A stretch of 64,000 nucleotides of DNA from an uncultured Candidatus Moduliflexus sp. (GTDB taxonomy: Bacteria; Moduliflexota; Moduliflexia; Moduliflexales; Moduliflexaceae). Position 1 is the first letter of the stretch, and each line of letters starts with the position of its first letter. Below the pieces are notes generated by a model. It had not been told where the DNA came from, ran no database searches, and worked only from the letters and a program-made list of their open reading frames with translations. The position numbers and the translations under genes were made by a program. The DNA is taken from assembly GCA_964602655.1 (NCBI GenBank), contig CAZRSF010000017.1:24116-88115 (forward strand), written 5' to 3'. Positions 14,679-64,000 of the stretch are shown piece by piece.

Positions 14679-16196
14679 TTACCGTAATTTCCCTTCGATT
14701 GCGTGAATCACTGTTTTTAAGGTTTTGATGCGAGCGTAGTATTTCGAATTCGCTTCCACAATCGTCCAGGGCGCGTACGCCGTGCTGGTGCGGAAGAGCA
14801 TTTCGTCCACCGCCGCCTCGTACACGTCCCATTTCTCGCGATTGCGCCAATCTTCTTCCGTAATTTTCCAGGTTTTATTGTCATCGCGCTGCCGATCTTC
14901 GAAGCGTCGCAACTGTTCTGCCTGGTCTATATGCAGCCAGAATTTCACAATCGCCGCGCCAAAGTTGGCGATATGTTCTTCCATTTCATTGATTTCTTGA
15001 TATGCCCGCCGCCACGCCTCTTCTTTGCAGAAGCCCTCAATGCGTTCGACCAGGACGCGCCCGTACCAGGTGCGGTCGAAAATGGTGAGATGTCCGGCTT
15101 TCGGGAACGCTGTCCAGAAACGCCAGAGGTAATGATGCGCCTTTTCGATGTCATTGGGCGCAGCCACTGGAATCACTTCATAACCGCGCGGATCCATGCT
15201 CTGCGTCAGCCGTCGGATATTGCCCCCTTTGCCTGCCGCGTCCCAGCCTTCATACAAAATAATGACCGGAATGCGCTTGCGATAAATCTCGTGTTCCAAC
15301 TCGAACATTCGTTTCTGACAGGTTTTCAGTTCGTTTTCATATTCTTCCGGCGATAAGGTCGCCGAGAGATCGACTTTTTTCAAGATTGACGCGCCGAGCG
15401 TGCTGAATGCGTCTGGCGCGGGCGGCGTCCCCGCTGGCGCTGCGGCGTCGTTGACGACGACTGTCGCGGCCTGCCGCAGCAAATTGATCTGCCGGATTTT
15501 AGCGTCAATGCTATCAATGGCGGTTTTAAACACCTTCACCGTCGCAAAGTGTTTGTCGTGCGCTTCAATGACCGTCCAGGGCGCGAAGCTGGTGTCCGTT
15601 TTCGCCAGCATCTCCTCGACCGCGTCGAGATAGGCCGCATATTGTTCATGATGCCGCCAGTCTTCTTTCGTGACTTTCCACGACGTTGTCGGTGATTTCT
15701 CAAGCTTTTCGAAGCGTTTGCGCTGCGTCTCCTTGCTGATGTGCAGGAAGAATTTGATGATGAGCGCCCCCTCGTTGGTCAATTGCCGCTCGAACGAGGC
15801 AATTTCCTGATACGAACGCAGCCATTCCGGTTTTTTGACGAGTTTGTCGATCCGTTCCACTAATACGCGCCCGTACCAACTGCGGTCGAACACGGCGATG
15901 CGGCCTTTAGCCGGGGTTTTGATCCAGAAGCGCCAGAGAAATGGGCGTAAGCGTTCTTCTTCGTTCGGCGCGTTAATCGGAAGCACGACAAATCCGCGCG
16001 GATCGAGCGTCTGAATCAGGCGATTGATCATCGTGCCTTTGCCTGCCGCGTCCCAGCCTTCGAAGACGAGAATAATCGGAAGATTCAAGGCGCGAGCTTC
16101 CCGCTGCAACAGACCCAATCGTAGTTCCAAATCCGGCATAATGGTTTTGTATTGGTCTTTCTCAAGCGATTTAGCAAGATCGATCTGATCTAACAT
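14679..16196 (-). CDS. ppk2: Two-domain polyphosphate kinase 2 (PPK2 family, polyP:AMP/ADP phosphotransferase-like)
   Basis: Two tandem PPK2 domains are present. Each has a Walker-A-like EGWDAAGKG motif and a lid region. Confidence 0.9.
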   Translation of the reverse strand: MLDQIDLAKSLEKDQYKTIMPDLELRLGLLQREARALNLPIILVFEGWDAAGKGTMINRLIQTLDPRGFVVLPINAPNEEERLRPFLWRFWIKTPAKGRIAVFDRSWYGRVLVERIDKLVKKPEWLRSYQEIASFERQLTNEGALIIKFFLHISKETQRKRFEKLEKSPTTSWKVTKEDWRHHEQYAAYLDAVEEMLAKTDTSFAPWTVIEAHDKHFATVKVFKTAIDSIDAKIRQINLLRQAATVVVNDAAAPAGTPPAPDAFSTLGASILKKVDLSATLSPEEYENELKTCQKRMFELEHEIYRKRIPVIILYEGWDAAGKGGNIRRLTQSMDPRGYEVIPVAAPNDIEKAHHYLWRFWTAFPKAGHLTIFDRTWYGRVLVERIEGFCKEEAWRRAYQEINEMEEHIANFGAAIVKFWLHIDQAEQLRRFEDRQRDDNKTWKITEEDWRNREKWDVYEAAVDEMLFRTSTAYAPWTIVEANSKYYARIKTLKTVIHAIEGKLR

Positions 16197-16713
16197 AATA
16201 TGTCTCCCTTTTATTTGTTAAGATTGTGTGAGCGCAGCGTTAAATTTCGATAAAGGGCAGGTAGGCGCGATGTCTTCTCGTTCATAGCAACACTCGCAAT
16301 TATTTCCGTATCGCGAACGAGGACGTTCGCAGTACGGAGGGCTGAAGAGTTACCAAAAATCTTAATGGAATCGCCTCATGTTTGTCAAATGAAAAGTAGT
16401 CAAAAATCATCTCCTGATGATTCATCGTACTATTTAATGCAAATCTGTCATAAAGCCAACGAATGAATACGGAAATGTCTAAAAAATACCGATTGCATTT
16501 GAACCCATTATGTATGATTTATATGTCGAAACGCAGTGTTGTTGTACAGCATGACACTAAAAACATGTAAGGAGAAATTGGAGGAGGACACTTGCGTGAG
16601 CGGGACATGAAAGGAGAATGCTGAAAAAGAGGAAACCATACTTCTTGCCGAAGATAGAACGCCCCGGCCTTACGAAAAATTCGTTCAACCGAGGCGTGGG
16701 TGATGCGCTGAAT

Positions 16714-16914
16714 TCATGCGACTCTCAAGCTTTTTACGGCATTCACAAGCGAAATCACGGCGCTTGCAATTCCTAAAAGCGTCATCGTCGAAGTGTCCGG
16801 CACCGGACTGATTTGATGTGGATTGATGATGTATGTGAGCGTCCCGACAATAAAATTTGCCAGGCAGAACAGATACATAAATGAAGCGAATGCATGTTTC
16901 ACCAGGCTTTGCAT
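16714..16914 (-). CDS. Small hydrophobic protein (2 predicted TM helices), hypothetical
   Basis: The RBS AAGGAGAG lies 8 nt upstream of the ATG at 16914. The protein is 66 aa and sits inside an AT-rich gene-poor region. Confidence 0.35.
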   Translation of the reverse strand: MQSLVKHAFASFMYLFCLANFIVGTLTYIINPHQISPVPDTSTMTLLGIASAVISLVNAVKSLRVA

Positions 16915-17496
16915 AGAAACGCTCTCCTTTATTTATCGTATGTGCCGAAAGGCAATTGTTGCTATATTAACGTATTTTTCGTACTCGACACTGTTTGTTA
17001 TAGCACATTTCATGCCAATTATAGCGCTCTTCATAAGTAAGCATTGGGCACTCCTGCGGCGCTGCCGTAAATGTTCGTTCCATGTTGTTGCAGAAGATAC
17101 GAGGCGGGGGAGAGGGCGGTAACCTTCAGGATTCGGTAAAATAAATATGATGATTTCATATAGGTCAGAAAATTTTCATGCGGTTCGTGATTTCTGGTTT
17201 ATTCAGTTTATTTTTTCACAAGCTACGCGATTCAGAGATAATCATGTGAATAATGTTTCGTAATTGGCATGGTGGATAAAATAGACGCCATGTTGTTGAG
17301 TAGATGAGCAAGATGAACATGTATCGAAGTCAACATAACGCAGACGCGTAAAATGCGTGGAGCACGCTTTTGAGAGCATGTGCCGCCAGAATGCCTTATA
17401 GTAGCGAAATAGCGATTTCCCCCTCCCGGCAGATTTCAAGTTCACATAATCCACATTAGCGGACGTTGAGCGATACATAAGAAAGACTTGCCCCTT

Positions 17497-17703
17497 TTAT
17501 ACAGCACTATACGCCTGTTTCAATTTAAAAAAGTTCACCATAATTACGCGCAACAATCGTTTACAACAAATCGCTGTCAAAAAGACTATCAGCGTAGCAA
17601 GCAGATTGCCGCGTTTCGAAAGATTCGTTTCCAGTTTCTCCGTGATGACGGTAATGGCAGAGTCGAACTCGTCGCGTTCAGCCTTGCTTTTCAATGGAGT
17701 CAT
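17497..17703 (-). CDS. Small protein with a C-terminal TM helix, hypothetical
   Basis: The ATG at 17703 lies immediately downstream of a perfect 12-3-12 palindrome. The protein is 68 aa. The RBS is weak, so this call is speculative. Confidence 0.25.
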   Translation of the reverse strand: MTPLKSKAERDEFDSAITVITEKLETNLSKRGNLLATLIVFLTAICCKRLLRVIMVNFFKLKQAYSAV

Positions 17704-17710
17704 TCCGCGT

Positions 17711-17737
17711 GTATCCTGGATAGAGTATCCAGGATAC
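17711..17737. promoter_or_regulatory. Perfect palindrome GTATCCTGGATA-GAG-TATCCAGGATAC, operator-like
   Basis: The palindrome has 12-bp perfect arms, sits in an AT-rich intergenic region and abuts a small ORF start. Confidence 0.4.
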
Positions 17738-18099
17738 ACCCCCGGTGTTGGCCTATTTGTGAAATAATTGCTATGTCGTCATTGTGATTCACGATGTTTC
17801 TCCTTTATTAAAATGAATTAGTTCACATGGTCTCTCTCTCGCTCTGCTCCAAAGATGCCTGGGTCAGACATTCTCGGCGATAATACGGTAAGAATGGGGA
17901 ATGCGCGGCTTCTTGTTCTCCCCATTCTTGCCATTTACGAGATGAATAGCCACCTCTCCCCCGTTTCGTCCATCTTCCGTTTTCTCTTTGTGAAATATTT
18001 TTTATTTTATCATTTCTATTGACACAATCGGCGTGACTTTTGAGATTGATTGCAAAAGCAACCTTCTGCACTCTTCAACACATTTCATCGGAGGCGCGT

Positions 18100-58200: not shown

Positions 58201-58380
58201 ATAGGAGAAATGATGGAAGAGCGTTTACCGAATATTCATCCTGACGAAGTATTAGAAGAAGAGTTTTTACAACCGTTGCATATGTCAGCGTCGCGGTTAG
58301 CGCAGGCGATCCGGCTGCCGCAACGCCGATTCGAAAAGCAGCTTACGCGAATTGACCATTTTCAGAGGATGCCCGGCTGA
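58201..58380 (+). pseudogene. HigA-like (XRE-HTH) antitoxin gene remnant, truncated or frameshifted after ~50 aa
   Basis: The translation MEERLPNIHPDEVLEEEFLQPLHMSASRLAQAIRLPQRRFEKQL… matches the HigA N-terminal pattern (IHPGEILxEEFLxPLGLS…LA.ALGV) but ends at 59 aa without the C-terminal helices. No toxin gene is adjacent. Confidence 0.5.
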
Positions 58381-58539
58381 TTTATTTCTCCGCGTCAAGT
58401 CCCCACACGCGCCCATTATACGACACGCGGGCGACCGGCCTGCCGTTTTCGGTCAACTCCCCGCCCGACCAATTCCCGCCGCCGAGGTCGTACTGTTCGA
58501 TATAAGCGCGGCAGGCGGCGCTGATTTCTTTGAATTCGA

Positions 58540-59790
58540 TCACAATTTCTTTATATCTGGAATTCCGGCTCTGCTGTTATGGGAATATAATTTTTGCAGA
58601 AAATCGTTTTTGTATGGATCATCAAAACTACAAATAAAACTTAATACAATTTCTTTTCCTTGAAATAAAAATATATCTTTATACTCCATCTGTTTAGGTG
58701 TTTTAGGATATTTTCTCATTTCATTAAATTTATCTAATTTATCTTTGGGAAGAGATTTGGACAATTTATCTATCACCTCTTCAGAAAGATACTGTTGTAT
58801 AATGATTTTGGATTTAAAAATTGCCACAAAATCAATCAGATTATTTTCTATAGATAACGCTGGGAAAAGATGCCAGGAAGGTTCTTTGAATTCTTTAATG
58901 CTTTTCCTCGCTTCTGATTTTAAGGCTAACTCTTGATTATCGAATTGCTGCAATTCAATAAGTTCAAGATATTTCGTGCTGCCTTGTTCAATGTCGCAAG
59001 CGGGGGTGATGACAATCCCATATTTAAGAATCTTTCCAGTATCGAATCTTACAATATCGCCATTACGAATCATTGTTGCATCTGATTCGTAATAAAGCAT
59101 TTTATTCAGGATGTATCTTCGTTTTTCATCTTTCCCAATGCTCTTAGCAAAATCTCGCGCATTTCGTAAAAGTTGCTTCAAATCACCAGTAAATCTGGTA
59201 TTTTTGACCAACTCTCGATGAATAAGATTTAAGATAAAATCATTACTCCAATCTATATTTTCTTCTTCTCCAATAAGAAATTTGAGGAGAGCAGCAATAT
59301 CCTGATTTGGAAGTTGCATTAAATCGAAAAAAACTTTTTCGATTCCGCCTCTGATGACTTGACGATATACATTGCTGATTTGGGCTGTTAGCGATTGTTG
59401 AAACCATTGAGAAATTTTTTGTTCAAGGATAATTGAAGAGACATTTTCTTTAGAAATTGCAGTAATCAATGCTTTCGGGTAAGAAATTTCATCTCTTAAA
59501 ACGCTTTCATCATAATTTGAAATATGATTTGACCAAATAAAGACGGGAATAAAATATCTGTTTTGCAAATGCTTTAAAACTAAGAGACTCAACAAATGGT
59601 TCTGTTCTTCTAAATACCAGTCTAAAATAACCACATCAAAGTTGATGCCAGAATCAAGAATTGTAATCGCGTCATCTTTTGTTCCACAGCAGTGAAGAGT
59701 AATCTGGTTTTGTTGAAAGTCTTCACGTAATGTTTCTTCAAAATCAAGATAGTCATCATCAATAAGTAGCACTCGCTGTACGTTATTCAT
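58540..59790 (-). CDS. Response regulator: N-terminal REC domain fused to an uncharacterised ~300-aa C-terminal output domain
   Basis: REC hallmarks are present (VLLIDDD…, phospho-acceptor context DVVILDWYL, PVFIWS). GGAG lies 9 nt before the ATG at 59790. The start overlaps the upstream kinase stop (ATGAATAA). Confidence 0.7.
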   Translation of the reverse strand: MNNVQRVLLIDDDYLDFEETLREDFQQNQITLHCCGTKDDAITILDSGINFDVVILDWYLEEQNHLLSLLVLKHLQNRYFIPVFIWSNHISNYDESVLRDEISYPKALITAISKENVSSIILEQKISQWFQQSLTAQISNVYRQVIRGGIEKVFFDLMQLPNQDIAALLKFLIGEEENIDWSNDFILNLIHRELVKNTRFTGDLKQLLRNARDFAKSIGKDEKRRYILNKMLYYESDATMIRNGDIVRFDTGKILKYGIVITPACDIEQGSTKYLELIELQQFDNQELALKSEARKSIKEFKEPSWHLFPALSIENNLIDFVAIFKSKIIIQQYLSEEVIDKLSKSLPKDKLDKFNEMRKYPKTPKQMEYKDIFLFQGKEIVLSFICSFDDPYKNDFLQKLYSHNSRAGIPDIKKL

Positions 59791-61921
59791 TATGATTCTC
59801 CGTAAATGTGATTTTGAACGATGCTCCTTGTAATAAACCGATTTCTGGATAATCATCTTTCGATACAAGGGCAATATCCCAATTCTTCTCCTCTAAAATT
59901 TCTTTAACAATATACAAACCAAGCCCCCGTCCATCCTCAATTTTTGTAGTGAAAAACGGTTCGAAAATTTTATCTTTATACCGCGAAATCACTCCAGAAC
60001 CACTATCCGAGACAAACACAGAAGATGTTTTGGCATCAAGAATAATCCGAATACTACGTTTATCCAGTTCGGATTTACGCGACAACCAGAAAATTGCGTT
60101 ATCAATCAGATTGTTAAAAATCTGCATACAAGAGCCTTCTCGCATTTTTACGATAAAACTTTCTCCCTGCATTTCAATCTGAATAGATTCTTTTTCTAAC
60201 CAACGCTCTTGTAAAGCTATCGTATTTTCAATAATCTTCCGGATCTCTAATTCTTTTTCATTTGCAACCTTTTTAACGTAAAACATTGGACCTAAAAGAC
60301 GAATATCATTTCGTAATGCTTCTAAGGAGCTATAGAGCAAATCGAGTTCTTTTTTGATCTTCGGGGATAATGGATCAAGAAATTTTTTGAGTCTTCCTAA
60401 CGCATCAAGAGCGCCACGCACCAGACGAGCAAATTCATGCGTAAATCGTTCAGCGGCTAAACCTGTCCCTGCAAGACTAAACAATGTCTCTTTTTCCTGT
60501 TTCTGTGATTCAAAAGACTCTTTTACTTCTTCCTCAAATGTTGTGATCTCATTCACAGAATTCTCAAGAATCGCGGCAACTTTGACATTATTTTCTTTGT
60601 GACTTTCTGCAAGCTTATCTGCTAAAGTTGAAAGTTTTGTTTTCGCCTGTTGAAGAGGTTCACTATTATAATCCTGTTTTTTTTCTTTTTTCGGCCTATC
60701 TGCTAAACGCTCGTGCTCTAACACTTGTATTGTAGCAAGAACAAGCTCTCGAAATTGATGAAATGCAAGGTTTTCAATTAATCCTTCACGATTGGTCTTA
60801 TCTTTTAAAAGTTGATTTTCGATCTGGTTGACCTCAATCATGCCAATTATTGTTTTATTGTCAATCTTTCCTGTCGGATCTTGCACTCTTCTTTTATCCA
60901 ATTCAAGCCAATCATCACCTCTCTCTCCGTAAGGAAGAATTCGTATTCCATCCCTATAAATACTCACTCCACACAACTCTTCAATATCTTTTTTAATCAC
61001 CCCTGATTTTTGCAACCATTCAGGAGATTTATCATAATTATGCAAATTAACAATAAAGCTACCACAAATAAGTTCTTCTTGTATTTTGAGGGAATATTCT
61101 TTAATTAGATTAATTTGCCCATTTTTTTGAGTTGGTTTATATCCTGGAACAAAAAAATAATATTCAAACTCAAGTACACCTTGAGTATCTACTATGCCCC
61201 AAAATTTATAATGAGCTTTTTCTAAAATGTCAGAGATTTCAAGGTTTCCATATTTCAGAAATTCTTCTGGACAATCTTCAATTTTCAAAGTGACATCAAA
61301 ATCAGTTGCTCCTTTGAATGGACTTTTCATTCTTTTTAAAGTATTAGCAACACGTTTTATATCAGTCTCAGTCCAATTCGATTTCAAATGAGAAATCTCT
61401 AATAATACTCCTGATTCTTCCTGTTGAAATTCTATTAATGATCTTTCTGCATAACCTATTTCAATATCGTTCAGGTCTTTTCCTTCCACATCAAATTCTT
61501 GCCAGTCAATAGAAACTACTAACTCAATATTAGAATCTTTTACTTTAGAAATCAACGTCAGTGTATTTCCGATCTGTTGAGCTGCAAATCTTCCCACTCC
61601 CTTTTCCCCTAATGGAAGCCTACCCAGTAGTGTTCTTTCTTGTTTGGCTTTTTGCTTTTCTTTATGACCTGAGGCAGGATTCATCCACTTCGTAAGAAAA
61701 GTTTCTGTATCCATCCCACAACCATCATCTCTAATAGTGATCTTTGCGCTAGAAGTATTTAACGCAACCATACTCACCTGAACAGAGGTTGCATCAGCAT
61801 CGTAACTATTTTTAACGAGTTCTACAAGCCCAACAGAAGCGTCCTTGATCAGTTGTTCTCCAAGAATCTGGATTAATCTCGCTTTCGGGGTAAAAGCCTG
61901 TTTGCCTGTTTTCATATTCAT
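59783..61921 (-). CDS. Fusion protein: N-terminal MORC/HATPase_c_3-type GHKL ATPase, central linker, C-terminal histidine kinase (DHp-like H-box + HATPase_c)
   Basis: The N-terminus reads …LVELVKNSYDADAT…ITIRDDGCGMD… (GHKL Bergerat fold). The C-terminus has a candidate H-box (ERFTHEFARLV), an N-box (QIFNNLIDNAIFW), G1 (DSGSGV) and G2 (GRGLGLYIVKE). The start codon directly abuts the HerA stop (TAAATG). Confidence 0.8.
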   Translation of the reverse strand: MNMKTGKQAFTPKARLIQILGEQLIKDASVGLVELVKNSYDADATSVQVSMVALNTSSAKITIRDDGCGMDTETFLTKWMNPASGHKEKQKAKQERTLLGRLPLGEKGVGRFAAQQIGNTLTLISKVKDSNIELVVSIDWQEFDVEGKDLNDIEIGYAERSLIEFQQEESGVLLEISHLKSNWTETDIKRVANTLKRMKSPFKGATDFDVTLKIEDCPEEFLKYGNLEISDILEKAHYKFWGIVDTQGVLEFEYYFFVPGYKPTQKNGQINLIKEYSLKIQEELICGSFIVNLHNYDKSPEWLQKSGVIKKDIEELCGVSIYRDGIRILPYGERGDDWLELDKRRVQDPTGKIDNKTIIGMIEVNQIENQLLKDKTNREGLIENLAFHQFRELVLATIQVLEHERLADRPKKEKKQDYNSEPLQQAKTKLSTLADKLAESHKENNVKVAAILENSVNEITTFEEEVKESFESQKQEKETLFSLAGTGLAAERFTHEFARLVRGALDALGRLKKFLDPLSPKIKKELDLLYSSLEALRNDIRLLGPMFYVKKVANEKELEIRKIIENTIALQERWLEKESIQIEMQGESFIVKMREGSCMQIFNNLIDNAIFWLSRKSELDKRSIRIILDAKTSSVFVSDSGSGVISRYKDKIFEPFFTTKIEDGRGLGLYIVKEILEEKNWDIALVSKDDYPEIGLLQGASFKITFTENHNE

Positions 61922-63571
61922 TTACTCCGTATGTTCACGTTTACTTGAGCAAGGCCGCATACTTGTCATAATCGGATGCTGAAATTGAGGCGAAACAATT
62001 ATACAATTTCCTTGTCCTAAAGTAGGGACTTCATCCCAAACAGATTCATTAACGCTACCAGCCGATGTTTTTAATACTTTGAGGTTATGACTGCCGGTTG
62101 TCTGGTGAATAACTTTAGTATTACACAATTCATAAATTTCATCGGGCAGGTGTGATGGCTGTTGAGAGATAAAACAGAGTCCTAACCAACGTTTTCTTCC
62201 CCGTCGAGCGACTTCACGTAAGCGATCCAGCAGAGCTTCCATTTTGCTGGCATTTTCTCTACTGACAAAGGTATGCGCTTCTTCGATGACAATTAAGGTC
62301 GGCGGTAAATTCTCGTCATGGATTTTTTGATCAAACACCTTTCTTAGAAGATAAGCGATTACAATATTATTAACGCGGACATTATAGGAATTACTTAAAT
62401 CAATTACGCTTACTTTTCCTGGTCTGATTAATGCCGTAGGATCAAGATATTCTTCCGCTAAATCAAAGATGCCAAACCTTTTTAGGCGTTCTAATAATCT
62501 TTTAACAACAAACCATGAAGATTTATCTGCCCCATTTGCTGAATTTATATGATCATTTACAGATTTAACTACATCTTTTAACGTAAGATCAGGGTAATCC
62601 TCATCTTCAAGAAATTCATTCTCTTCGAGAGCTTTCCATTGATTAGAAGATGACTTTTTCTTTTGCGCTTTATCTCCATTACAAATCCGATCTCTCACTT
62701 CATTCCATGCACTAATAAATCGGTCTTCCTGATTTTCATTCATCCCCATAATCGCTGATAATTCATAGGGGGAAAGACTTCCAAATGGAATTCCGAATTC
62801 TATAGCATCTTTTCTTTTTGTCTCTGTTGCCAAAGGAAAATATACCTGAAAGTCATTCAACCCTTTGGCAGTAATTTTAAAACGTTCTGCAATTTTTTGA
62901 AATTCTTTGTTTTTAAGAATTTCTTCAGATGGATAATCCATTGAGATATACTCACCTTCTACATCAAGAACAATTACTGCCCAACCTGCTGAACTTGCCT
63001 CTTCAATAAGTACTTGTGAGGAATTTGTTTTTCCAGACCCAACAGTTCCGAATATTCCTGTATTTCTTGGAAGAACTGATTTTTTATTACCATCGAAATG
63101 AACTCGAATATCGCCATACCCACTAAGTTGGCCGAGATACATGTTTCCTTGCAGACGAAGCAAGTCTTCTATTTTTTCAGGCGGTAATGGAAATATAGCA
63201 GACTTTGGGCGTGGTCTCGTTTGAACGCTTGATAAATTCGCAGAAGTAAGGTTAAAAAGGCCGAGCAGTTCTACAAAACAAATACCATGATAATCTGGCA
63301 AAAATCCAATTTTACCAGCCTGAATAATTGCCGTTTTAGCAAACGCAGATTCACGGCTCACAGCATCAGGCGTATAAAAAGGGCCTTTAACAATCCGTGC
63401 CAAATAAAAATGCTCTTCTTTACTGGATTCAACAATGACATATTTCCCTCTGAAGATTTCCTTAATTTTATCAAAAGGAACTCTGATTTCCACTTCGTTA
63501 TTCGACCCGCCAGGCGCTGAATCAAAATTAACAAATCCAATTGCGTGTTCTTTTGCAAAACCTGTTTCCAT
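61922..63571 (-). CDS. herA: HerA-like FtsK/HerA-superfamily ATPase (HAS-barrel N-domain + ATPase core)
   Basis: Walker A GTVGSGKTN, Walker B LIVIEEAHTF and the HerA-type ISQQPSHLPDEIYELCNTKVIHQ motif are present. AAGGAG lies 8 nt before the ATG at 63571. Confidence 0.8.
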   Translation of the reverse strand: METGFAKEHAIGFVNFDSAPGGSNNEVEIRVPFDKIKEIFRGKYVIVESSKEEHFYLARIVKGPFYTPDAVSRESAFAKTAIIQAGKIGFLPDYHGICFVELLGLFNLTSANLSSVQTRPRPKSAIFPLPPEKIEDLLRLQGNMYLGQLSGYGDIRVHFDGNKKSVLPRNTGIFGTVGSGKTNSSQVLIEEASSAGWAVIVLDVEGEYISMDYPSEEILKNKEFQKIAERFKITAKGLNDFQVYFPLATETKRKDAIEFGIPFGSLSPYELSAIMGMNENQEDRFISAWNEVRDRICNGDKAQKKKSSSNQWKALEENEFLEDEDYPDLTLKDVVKSVNDHINSANGADKSSWFVVKRLLERLKRFGIFDLAEEYLDPTALIRPGKVSVIDLSNSYNVRVNNIVIAYLLRKVFDQKIHDENLPPTLIVIEEAHTFVSRENASKMEALLDRLREVARRGRKRWLGLCFISQQPSHLPDEIYELCNTKVIHQTTGSHNLKVLKTSAGSVNESVWDEVPTLGQGNCIIVSPQFQHPIMTSMRPCSSKREHTE

Positions 63572-63584
63572 AGTTCTTCTCCTT

Positions 63585-64000
63585 CTACTTTTGACGTAAG
63601 GAATCTTCTGGCATTTCGGAAAGAAACTCTCCTTCTTGCGCAAGTTTAAACTCAACAATATTATTAAAATCTGTTGCCTTAAACAAAGTTGAACAGAGGT
63701 TATCCGCATAATCAATTAATAACGGAAATCCTTTTTCTCTTTGAAACATTGCATCTCTGGCAATAATTCTTGCGGCCTGTTCGAAATAATCCTGATGTGC
63801 ATGGAAAACATAAGGACGCTGAGAGATTTTAATGATTCCAATAAGAATTTTAGAAGCTTCTTGCTTTAAAAAGTGAGTCATTCTAAGCAATTCTTCTTCT
63901 CGCCATTTGTCTTTTGCCATAAAATCTTCATTTCTCAATAATTCCATTCCAACATTTGTATGCTTTAATAAAAAATATTCTCCTGAATTTAATGCCATAC
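63585..64000 (-). CDS. Partial CDS (C-terminal ≥138 aa) of an unknown protein immediately upstream of the HerA-like gene; the 5' end lies outside the window
   Basis: The ORF is open to the window edge and ends 13 nt before the HerA start. I could assign no domain from the visible part. Confidence 0.5.
   Translation of the reverse strand, partial: MALNSGEYFLLKHTNVGMELLRNEDFMAKDKWREEELLRMTHFLKQEASKILIGIIKISQRPYVFHAHQDYFEQAARIIARDAMFQREKGFPLLIDYADNLCSTLFKATDFNNIVEFKLAQEGEFLSEMPEDSLRQK

Follow-up and report, generated by a model that had tools for sequence, protein, structure and literature searches.

The stretch of DNA analysed here, which we refer to as the window, comprises 64,000 nucleotides from an uncultured Candidatus Moduliflexus sp. 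(contig CAZRSF010000017.1, positions 24,116 to 88,115), and the element under study is a response-regulator gene on its minus strand (58540..59790; 416 amino acids plus stop), the last gene of an operon that also encodes a C5 DNA methylase, a NurA-like protein, a HerA-type ATPase and a histidine kinase. The gene had been called in a preliminary description made from the sequence letters, and its reality is borne out by its open reading frame (ORF), its homologues and an independent gene call. The ATG at 59790 is preceded by a GGAG 9 nt to its 5′ side and lies within an 8-nt overlap with the end of the upstream kinase gene, the stop codon of the regulator lies at 58540-58542, and the identical protein was called on an independent assembly contig (L001, from SRR8925824). 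Full-length homologues of about 400 amino acids each fall into 75 clusters of 35–59% identity in a database of 5.8 billion proteins, and conservation over the full length of the protein is far beyond chance. A longer ORF starting from a TTG (59874) finds no support, because all 75 homologue clusters begin at MNN..RVLLIDD.

The first 130 residues of the regulator (59401..59790, minus strand) constitute a receiver domain with a (beta-alpha)5 fold, in which the acidic pocket D11-D13, the phospho-acceptor D57, S87 and K114 are all intact, as had been read before from the sequence. Among 33 aligned sequences D57 and K114 are invariant, D12 is kept in at least 90%, and all have a serine or threonine at the position of S87; D57 is also invariant in 38 distant relatives. 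Judged by its sequence the receiver is divergent, scoring 15.6 bits against PF00072, for which the gathering cut-off is 30.2. The best Pfam match of the regulator is PF19192 (Response_reg_2), again below threshold (17.7 bits vs 27, E = 0.004); at E ≤ 10 this family turns up in 13 of the 38 distant relatives (best E 1e-7), and all ten relatives that were scanned individually against it stayed below 27 bits (maximum 25.3). The shared output domain was also looked for in bona fide PF19192 members, and none of the 30 distant relatives scanned individually reached the gathering score of that family. The link to PF19192 is therefore one of shared architecture and gene context together with a sub-threshold score.

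The remaining part of the protein, residues ~131-416, had been described as an output half without recognisable motif, and these approximately 285 residues indeed have no match in Pfam, NCBIfam, PADLOC or the sequences of the PDB. AlphaFold models were made of the full-length regulator and of residues 131-416 alone (alignment A2), and they agree on a five-helix linker (131-232), a beta-barrel with a C-terminal helix (~240-405) and a disordered tail. In the A2 model the predicted local distance difference test (pLDDT) score is 76.6 overall and 80–94 in the beta part. From these models the output of the regulator is predicted to be an SH3-like barrel of the MazF/Kid/CcdB type, which together with the conserved C-terminal tail (406-416) occupies 58543..59094. 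MazF-type proteins outscore CcdB in both structure comparisons of the barrel, and its RGD-type beta1 motif is a MazF/PemK feature that is absent from CcdB. The MazF/CcdB likeness of this region comes from predicted structure; sequence and profile searches returned no significant match.

With a profile of the output region 139 matches were found among 1.84 billion representative proteins, and every full-length protein sampled from them carries a receiver-like N-terminus with D57. The output domain is found only behind receiver-like domains and is therefore a partner dedicated to receivers of this class. Within the output, conservation is highest in a segment that had been quoted in the preliminary description (DIVRF...TPACDIEQ...), which contains the invariant pairs G244-D245 and C265-D266; both pairs, along with P392 and G409, are invariant even in relatives of 17–27% identity. 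C265-D266 is the best candidate for a functional site of the output. The tail (window 58543-58575) carries N-S-R-A-G-I-P-D-I-K-K-L, with the family form N-S-R-x-G-x-P-D-I-K-x-L, and at 82% pairwise identity it is better conserved than any other stretch of the protein (40–48% in the rest), while being disordered in the prediction (pLDDT < 50), a combination that suggests a docking motif for a partner. Within the barrel, an insertion of ~22 residues (~337-358, window 58717-58782) forms two helices and is lacking in nearly all homologues.

Between receiver and barrel lies the all-helical linker (59095..59400, minus strand), its five helices taken from the secondary structure of both models at a pLDDT of 56–85. 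Family-conserved residues in it are Y142-R143, E151, D180-W181, D184 and H191-R192, and neither a fold nor a sequence match was found for residues 131-232. The linker also contains the motif E-N-I-D-W (residues 177-181, window 59248-59262), in which W181 is replaced by histidine in sister clades. The motif is similar to H-E-N-I-D-W-G, the C-terminal peptide with which E. coli MazE binds MazF, a likeness that we take to be a probable coincidence because of this replacement.

The regulator had been placed at the end of a HerA operon, and this holds: the NurA-like, HerA, kinase and regulator genes are co-directional and overlapping, in the order C5 DNA methylase, NurA-like protein, HerA, GHKL plus histidine kinase, and regulator last. 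The end of the window (64000) cuts the operon, so that the methylase lies beyond it and is seen on the twin contig L001 (2-1042, upstream of the NurA-like gene; PF00145, 1.2e-51). The cognate kinase (59783..61921, minus strand) is a soluble protein of 712 amino acids that was delineated by Pfam, PDB alignment and motif conservation. It consists of an N-terminal paraMORC-type GHKL ATPase (HATPase_c_3), a conserved middle part, a DHp helix with the box H495-E496-F497 and a C-terminal HATPase_c domain, with Pfam matches to PF13589 (1.9e-20), PF02518 (3.7e-17) and, below threshold, to PF19191 (HEF_HK; E = 0.0076, 17.1 vs 24.1 bits). Its first 200 residues resemble the BbrUII/HgiDII restriction enzymes (E = 2.7e-20; PADLOC REase_II, 4e-14), and histidine kinases from the PDB align over residues 465-680. 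The GHKL motifs are intact, and the ATP-binding and H/N/G1/F/G2 motifs are invariant in 16 homologues.

Upstream of the kinase gene lies that of a HerA/FtsK-type hexameric ATPase (61922..63571, minus strand; 549 amino acids as called in L001, or 597 when the ORF is extended mechanically to a start at 63715), which matches PF01935 (2.5e-24), PF05872 and the PADLOC models for HerA (to 4e-26), mad8 and DndH. It is preceded by the last 137 of the 358 codons of the NurA-like gene (63585..64000, minus strand, continuing past the window; full gene at 1009-2085 of L001). The 358-residue protein belongs to no Pfam family, its homologues form 221 clusters, and a PDB profile search with it came back empty. 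Its invariant motifs are G-x-D81-G-T, E117, E154-R-E156, H289, D303 and D317-Y-A-D320, and the most recurrent weak Pfam match in its family is NurA (PF09376; 2 of 23 members, E = 0.015). Because of these invariant acidic and histidine motifs and the recurrent weak match we read it as the NurA-like partner of HerA, and judging from its sequence it is probably a new family of NurA-like nucleases paired with HerA.

The operon block differs in base composition from its surroundings, with a guanine-plus-cytosine (GC) fraction of 0.36–0.38 vs ~0.5 in the flanks, and the stop codon of the regulator is precisely where this low-GC island ends. A scan for terminators and promoters downstream of the regulator gave nothing convincing on the minus strand. 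Just outside the island lie a 56-residue ORF on the plus strand (58210-58380), whose N-terminus by eye resembles a truncated HigA/VapI-type antitoxin, and a GC-rich 52-residue ORF on the minus strand, whose GTG overlaps the stop of the regulator. These small ORFs at the island edge (58210-58543) may mark the site where the island was inserted.

To place the operon in a wider context, 27 loci were compared, seven of which came from an exact-protein index and 20 from a set with one genome per species, with annotation by phmmer. The methylase, kinase and regulator form an invariant core in these loci, the methylase being present in nearly all that are not interrupted by a contig end, and the order methylase-(NurA-like-HerA)-kinase-regulator is kept across phyla. 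About 13 loci have the NurA-like and HerA genes, about eight have an HNH_2 gene directly after the regulator, and most have a Vsr or EndoIII-like mismatch-repair gene. In some loci (L002 3079-3759, L009 112-573 and L012 11182-11811) Vsr is replaced beside the methylase by an EndoIII/HhH-GPD-type glycosylase, the ‘Type II nicking endonuclease’ of PADLOC, which presumably offers another means of T:G mismatch repair. Two loci, L022 and L024, have the methylase, kinase and regulator only (plus Vsr in L024) between flanks of housekeeping genes, so that no other protein is present there to supply a restriction or toxic activity. Elsewhere the operon is surrounded by defence or mobile genes, such as RloB/AAA_15, HEPN, relaxase and type IV coupling protein (T4CP) genes and toxin-antitoxin genes. 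None of the 27 loci has a stand-alone receiver gene, and no small antitoxin-like gene is conserved beside the regulator in them; the fused receiver is presumably the control element in place of an antitoxin. One decayed operon (L015 5658-11947) has lost HerA and retains a methylase broken into three pieces, a truncated NurA-like gene and a frameshifted kinase, while the regulator and the downstream HNH_2 gene are intact. Though a single anecdote, this is consistent with a regulator that does no harm when its kinase is gone.

The regulator clade is rare and patchy. In a set of 185,579 genomes (one per species) it turned up in 20, all of which are metagenome-assembled genomes (MAGs), with Bacteroidota, Ignavibacteria, Acidobacteriota and Desulfobacterota-type organisms as hosts. 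Among the related operons L001-L004 the regulator is the fastest-evolving protein, with 36–46% identity compared to 59–87% for HerA and the NurA-like protein, 52–63% for the kinase and 44–55% for the methylase, a pattern that would be expected under diversifying pressure or for a specificity determinant.

The closest known counterparts of the pair are the Response_reg_2 (PF19192)/HEF_HK (PF19191) pairs, which Bellieny-Rabelo, Pretorius and Moleleki reported in 2021 to be enriched beside C5 methylases, Vsr and HNH_2 genes (PMC8011034). According to that paper, such pairs occur in 628 bacterial strains, including Escherichia, Salmonella, Klebsiella, Yersinia and Vibrio, with two to three paralogues in some strains, and they derive from paraMORC ATPases (Iyer et al. 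2008, PMC2292703; PMC8011034). One MAG of Ignavibacterium album in our set likewise contains two separate kinase-regulator copies (L020 and L025). In the paper the regulators are described as having no known domain besides the receiver, with their output unassigned, and the authors speculated that the pair regulates restriction-modification systems (PMC8011034). The operon of the window has in common with these pairs a soluble kinase of the layout HATPase_c_3, His-Glu-Phe DHp and HATPase_c, a directly adjacent receiver protein without known output, an upstream C5 methylase, and Vsr and HNH_2 genes nearby. It differs by the NurA-like and HerA genes between methylase and kinase (HerA is not mentioned in the Results and Discussion of PMC8011034), by hosts that are represented only by MAGs rather than by mostly proteobacterial isolates, and by an output that is predicted to be MazF/CcdB-like where the 2021 output is unassigned. 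Since architecture and context are the same and the scores are below both Pfam cut-offs, we regard the pair of the window as a divergent sister clade and not as a proven member. The preliminary description had suggested a possible new toxic output under the control of phosphorylation; the kinase/regulator arrangement has had a closely similar bioinformatic precedent since 2021 (PMC8011034) and so is not wholly new, and the output, unassigned there, is now predicted to have a MazF/CcdB-like fold.

What the analysis provides directly is the set of components, with intact motifs in the receiver and in both ATPase modules, their conserved synteny and the fold predicted for the output. From the predicted structure and the gene context we propose that the operon may be a methylation-linked, horizontally mobile defence or restriction-like module, in which the kinase would phosphorylate D57 and thereby release a MazF-fold effector, a reading to which we give a probability of roughly 0.45. 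The GHKL/paraMORC half of the kinase would engage DNA that lacks the mark of the methylase, perhaps after HerA and the NurA-like protein have acted on it, and this engagement would lead to autophosphorylation on H495 and transfer of the phosphate to D57. Phosphorylation of D57 would then relieve an autoinhibition by the receiver, as in CheB, and/or dimerise the regulator. Both MazF and CcdB act as dimers. The MazF/CcdB-fold domain would then be the effector and would most likely attack RNA or another essential target, resulting in growth arrest, while the conserved disordered tail would probably dock on a partner. The polarity may also be reversed, with phosphorylation holding the effector off. 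A coupling of the output to phosphorylation is supported, at the level of sequence, by the confinement of the output domain to receiver-like proteins, the invariant kinase boxes and the overlap of the kinase and regulator genes. The gene context also speaks for the proposal, through the invariant methylase-kinase-regulator core, the absence of another restriction or toxic protein in L022 and L024, the defence and mobile neighbourhoods, the low-GC island and, as an anecdote, the decayed copy L015. A more specific version, possible and on balance doubtful, would have a restriction arm without any DNA endonuclease: a paraMORC-type kinase would read DNA methylation, His-to-Asp transfer would free the receiver-fused MazF-fold toxin to cause abortive infection or post-segregational killing, and the HerA/NurA-like and HNH components would be optional.

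Several observations weigh against the proposal of a phosphorylation-released MazF-fold effector. The assignment was made from predicted structures on shallow alignments (20–33 sequences), none of the 38 members searched matches PF02452 (MazF/PemK) or CcdB even at E ≤ 10, and a PDB profile search with the output region found no toxin. An hhalign comparison with a four-sequence MazF/Kid alignment gave P = 0.0065 and a probability of 5.8% over 25 columns; the sole stretch aligned is R-N-G-D-I-V plus beta2, against K-R-G-D-V plus beta2 of MazF, and in global mode the alignment is meaningless past beta2. A search meant to widen the MazF profile yielded only near-identical Bacillus NdoA proteins, which confirmed the B. 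subtilis sequence used but added no diversity. In the family alignment no conserved Arg precedes beta2 of the barrel, so that conserved equivalents of the two residues with which MazF catalyses its reaction, this Arg and a Thr at the end of beta3, are not recognisable; the beta1-beta2 loop, which carries the Arg in MazF, is short. For C265-D266 we know of no counterpart with a role in MazF or CcdB. MazF-fold proteins are not known to be DNases, while a methylase-linked system would classically need one, and most of the 27 loci carry separate nuclease candidates (NurA-like plus HerA, or HNH_2). On the side of mobility and defence, relatives of the regulator number zero in the plasmid (PLSDB) and viral (IMG/VR) collections, and the literature searched contains no work on toxicity, phosphotransfer or defence for any family member.

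The alternative that survives best, and which we consider a serious though tentative one, is that the regulator is an adaptor and not a toxin, its barrel and tail being non-catalytic binding modules that recruit, activate or release the NurA-like/HerA proteins or HNH_2, or that tune the methylase. Folds of this type do serve in binding: MazF binds an extended MazE peptide, and CcdB binds GyrA. The catalytic residues of MazF, not recognisably conserved in the barrel, are in line with such a role, as are the nuclease candidates near most regulators (NurA-like plus HerA in ~13 loci, HNH_2 directly after the regulator in ~8) and the fact that conservation peaks in a disordered tail of 11 residues, as is typical of docking motifs. 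On this reading a restriction system would be controlled post-translationally by the two-component pair, in line with the regulatory link to restriction-modification that Bellieny-Rabelo et al. proposed (PMC8011034). However, there is no nuclease gene near the core of L022 and L024 and thus nothing obvious to regulate there, and across the family loci can do without the NurA-like/HerA pair or without HNH_2, but never without the barrel and its invariant GD and CD motifs. C265-D266, a polar pair at the N-terminus of a helix, would also seem better suited to catalysis or ligand binding than to an interface alone.

The effector might instead be a CcdB-like poison whose barrel traps a topoisomerase or another GHKL-type enzyme rather than acting as an RNase. 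This is improbable, as MazF-type proteins rank higher than CcdB in both comparisons and the barrel combines an RGD-type beta1 motif of MazF/PemK, not of CcdB, with no sequence similarity to CcdB. An ordinary housekeeping regulator with a protein-interaction output, standing beside HerA genes by chance and without a defence role, is conceivable because uncharacterised outputs are common among response regulators; it is very improbable in view of the gene order with overlapping genes that is conserved across phyla, the low-GC island, the patchy and rare distribution (20 loci among 185,579 species) and the defence and mobile neighbourhoods. Least probable of all is a hidden PD-(D/E)xK DNA nuclease serving as the restriction endonuclease of the module, for which the need of a methylase-linked system for a DNase, two loci without another candidate and the invariant acidic residues D245 and D266 could be cited: the nuclease-like D...(D/E)xK arrangement suspected earlier in the quoted segment is modelled as beta1, beta2, a short helix and beta3 of a MazF-like barrel, its E268 and K273 vary across the family, and no nuclease family or fold is among the matches.

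In principle, the proposed phosphorylation-released effector resembles Detocs (Rousset et al. 2023), an experimentally shown defence system composed of the kinase DtcA, the buffer receiver DtcB and the receiver-effector DtcC. By analogy, both would employ a cytoplasmic histidine kinase that acts on a receiver fused to a cell-damaging effector and not to a DNA-binding domain, and the effector domain of Detocs is swappable. The sensor of the window is a GHKL/paraMORC ATPase, whereas Detocs has tetratricopeptide repeats (TPRs); the stand-alone buffer receiver is missing; the effector would have a MazF fold, in contrast to the PNP ATP nucleosidase of Detocs; and the genes are linked to a DNA methylase and to HerA/NurA-like genes. 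In PADLOC the regulator had no match at all and the kinase none to the Detocs models.

The barrel was also compared with the type II toxins MazF/PemK/Kid and CcdB and with the type III toxins ToxN/AbiQ/CptN, which act in abortive infection. Unlike these, it comes without an antitoxin gene or RNA, is fused behind a receiver and a helical domain, and has extra insertions and a family-specific invariant Cys-Asp pair. The kinase shares its GHKL module and its ties to cytosine methylases, Vsr and HNH with the paraMORC/BbrUII/HgiDII family (PMC2292703; NCBIfam NF050001), in which this module is followed by a C-terminal nuclease or occurs as an S5-only module, while the kinase of the window has a full histidine-kinase core and its output on a separate regulator. 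A HerA gene beside a putative nuclease in a defence-type operon is likewise known from HerA-NurA end resection and HerA defence (Sir2-HerA/DUF4297-HerA ‘Nezha’, DndH and MADS mad8). The HerA of the window differs from anti-phage HerA, reaching 56.7 vs 850 bits with the NCBIfam models, and its partner is weakly NurA-like. No HerA system with a histidine kinase and a response regulator is present among the PADLOC models or in the literature searched, in which MADS, BREX-related and Dnd-related HerA systems differ from this one and receiver-MazF fusions are absent. No later paper in the literature searched treats the Response_reg_2/HEF_HK families functionally.

Elsewhere in the window, a second dip in GC content was noted at 16001-18000 (0.435 vs ~0.5).

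New in the present analysis are the HerA plus NurA-like form of the operon and the proposal, from predicted structure, of a MazF/CcdB-fold output for a previously unassigned region. Detocs is so far the one experimentally shown case in which two-component phosphotransfer acts as a direct immune trigger, and for the Response_reg_2/HEF_HK pairs no effector has been proposed since 2021, so that a MazF/CcdB-type output, if true, would provide a concrete mechanism for the whole class. It would join three subjects that have so far been studied apart, namely HerA-based defence, the folds of toxin-antitoxin systems and the paraMORC/GHKL ATPases of restriction systems. Among toxins of the MazF/CcdB fold it would be the first that is silenced or controlled by phosphorylation in cis, through a fused receiver, and not by an antitoxin. 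Should the regulator turn out to be an adaptor instead, the family would be the first example of a restriction-type machinery under post-translational control by a His-Asp relay.

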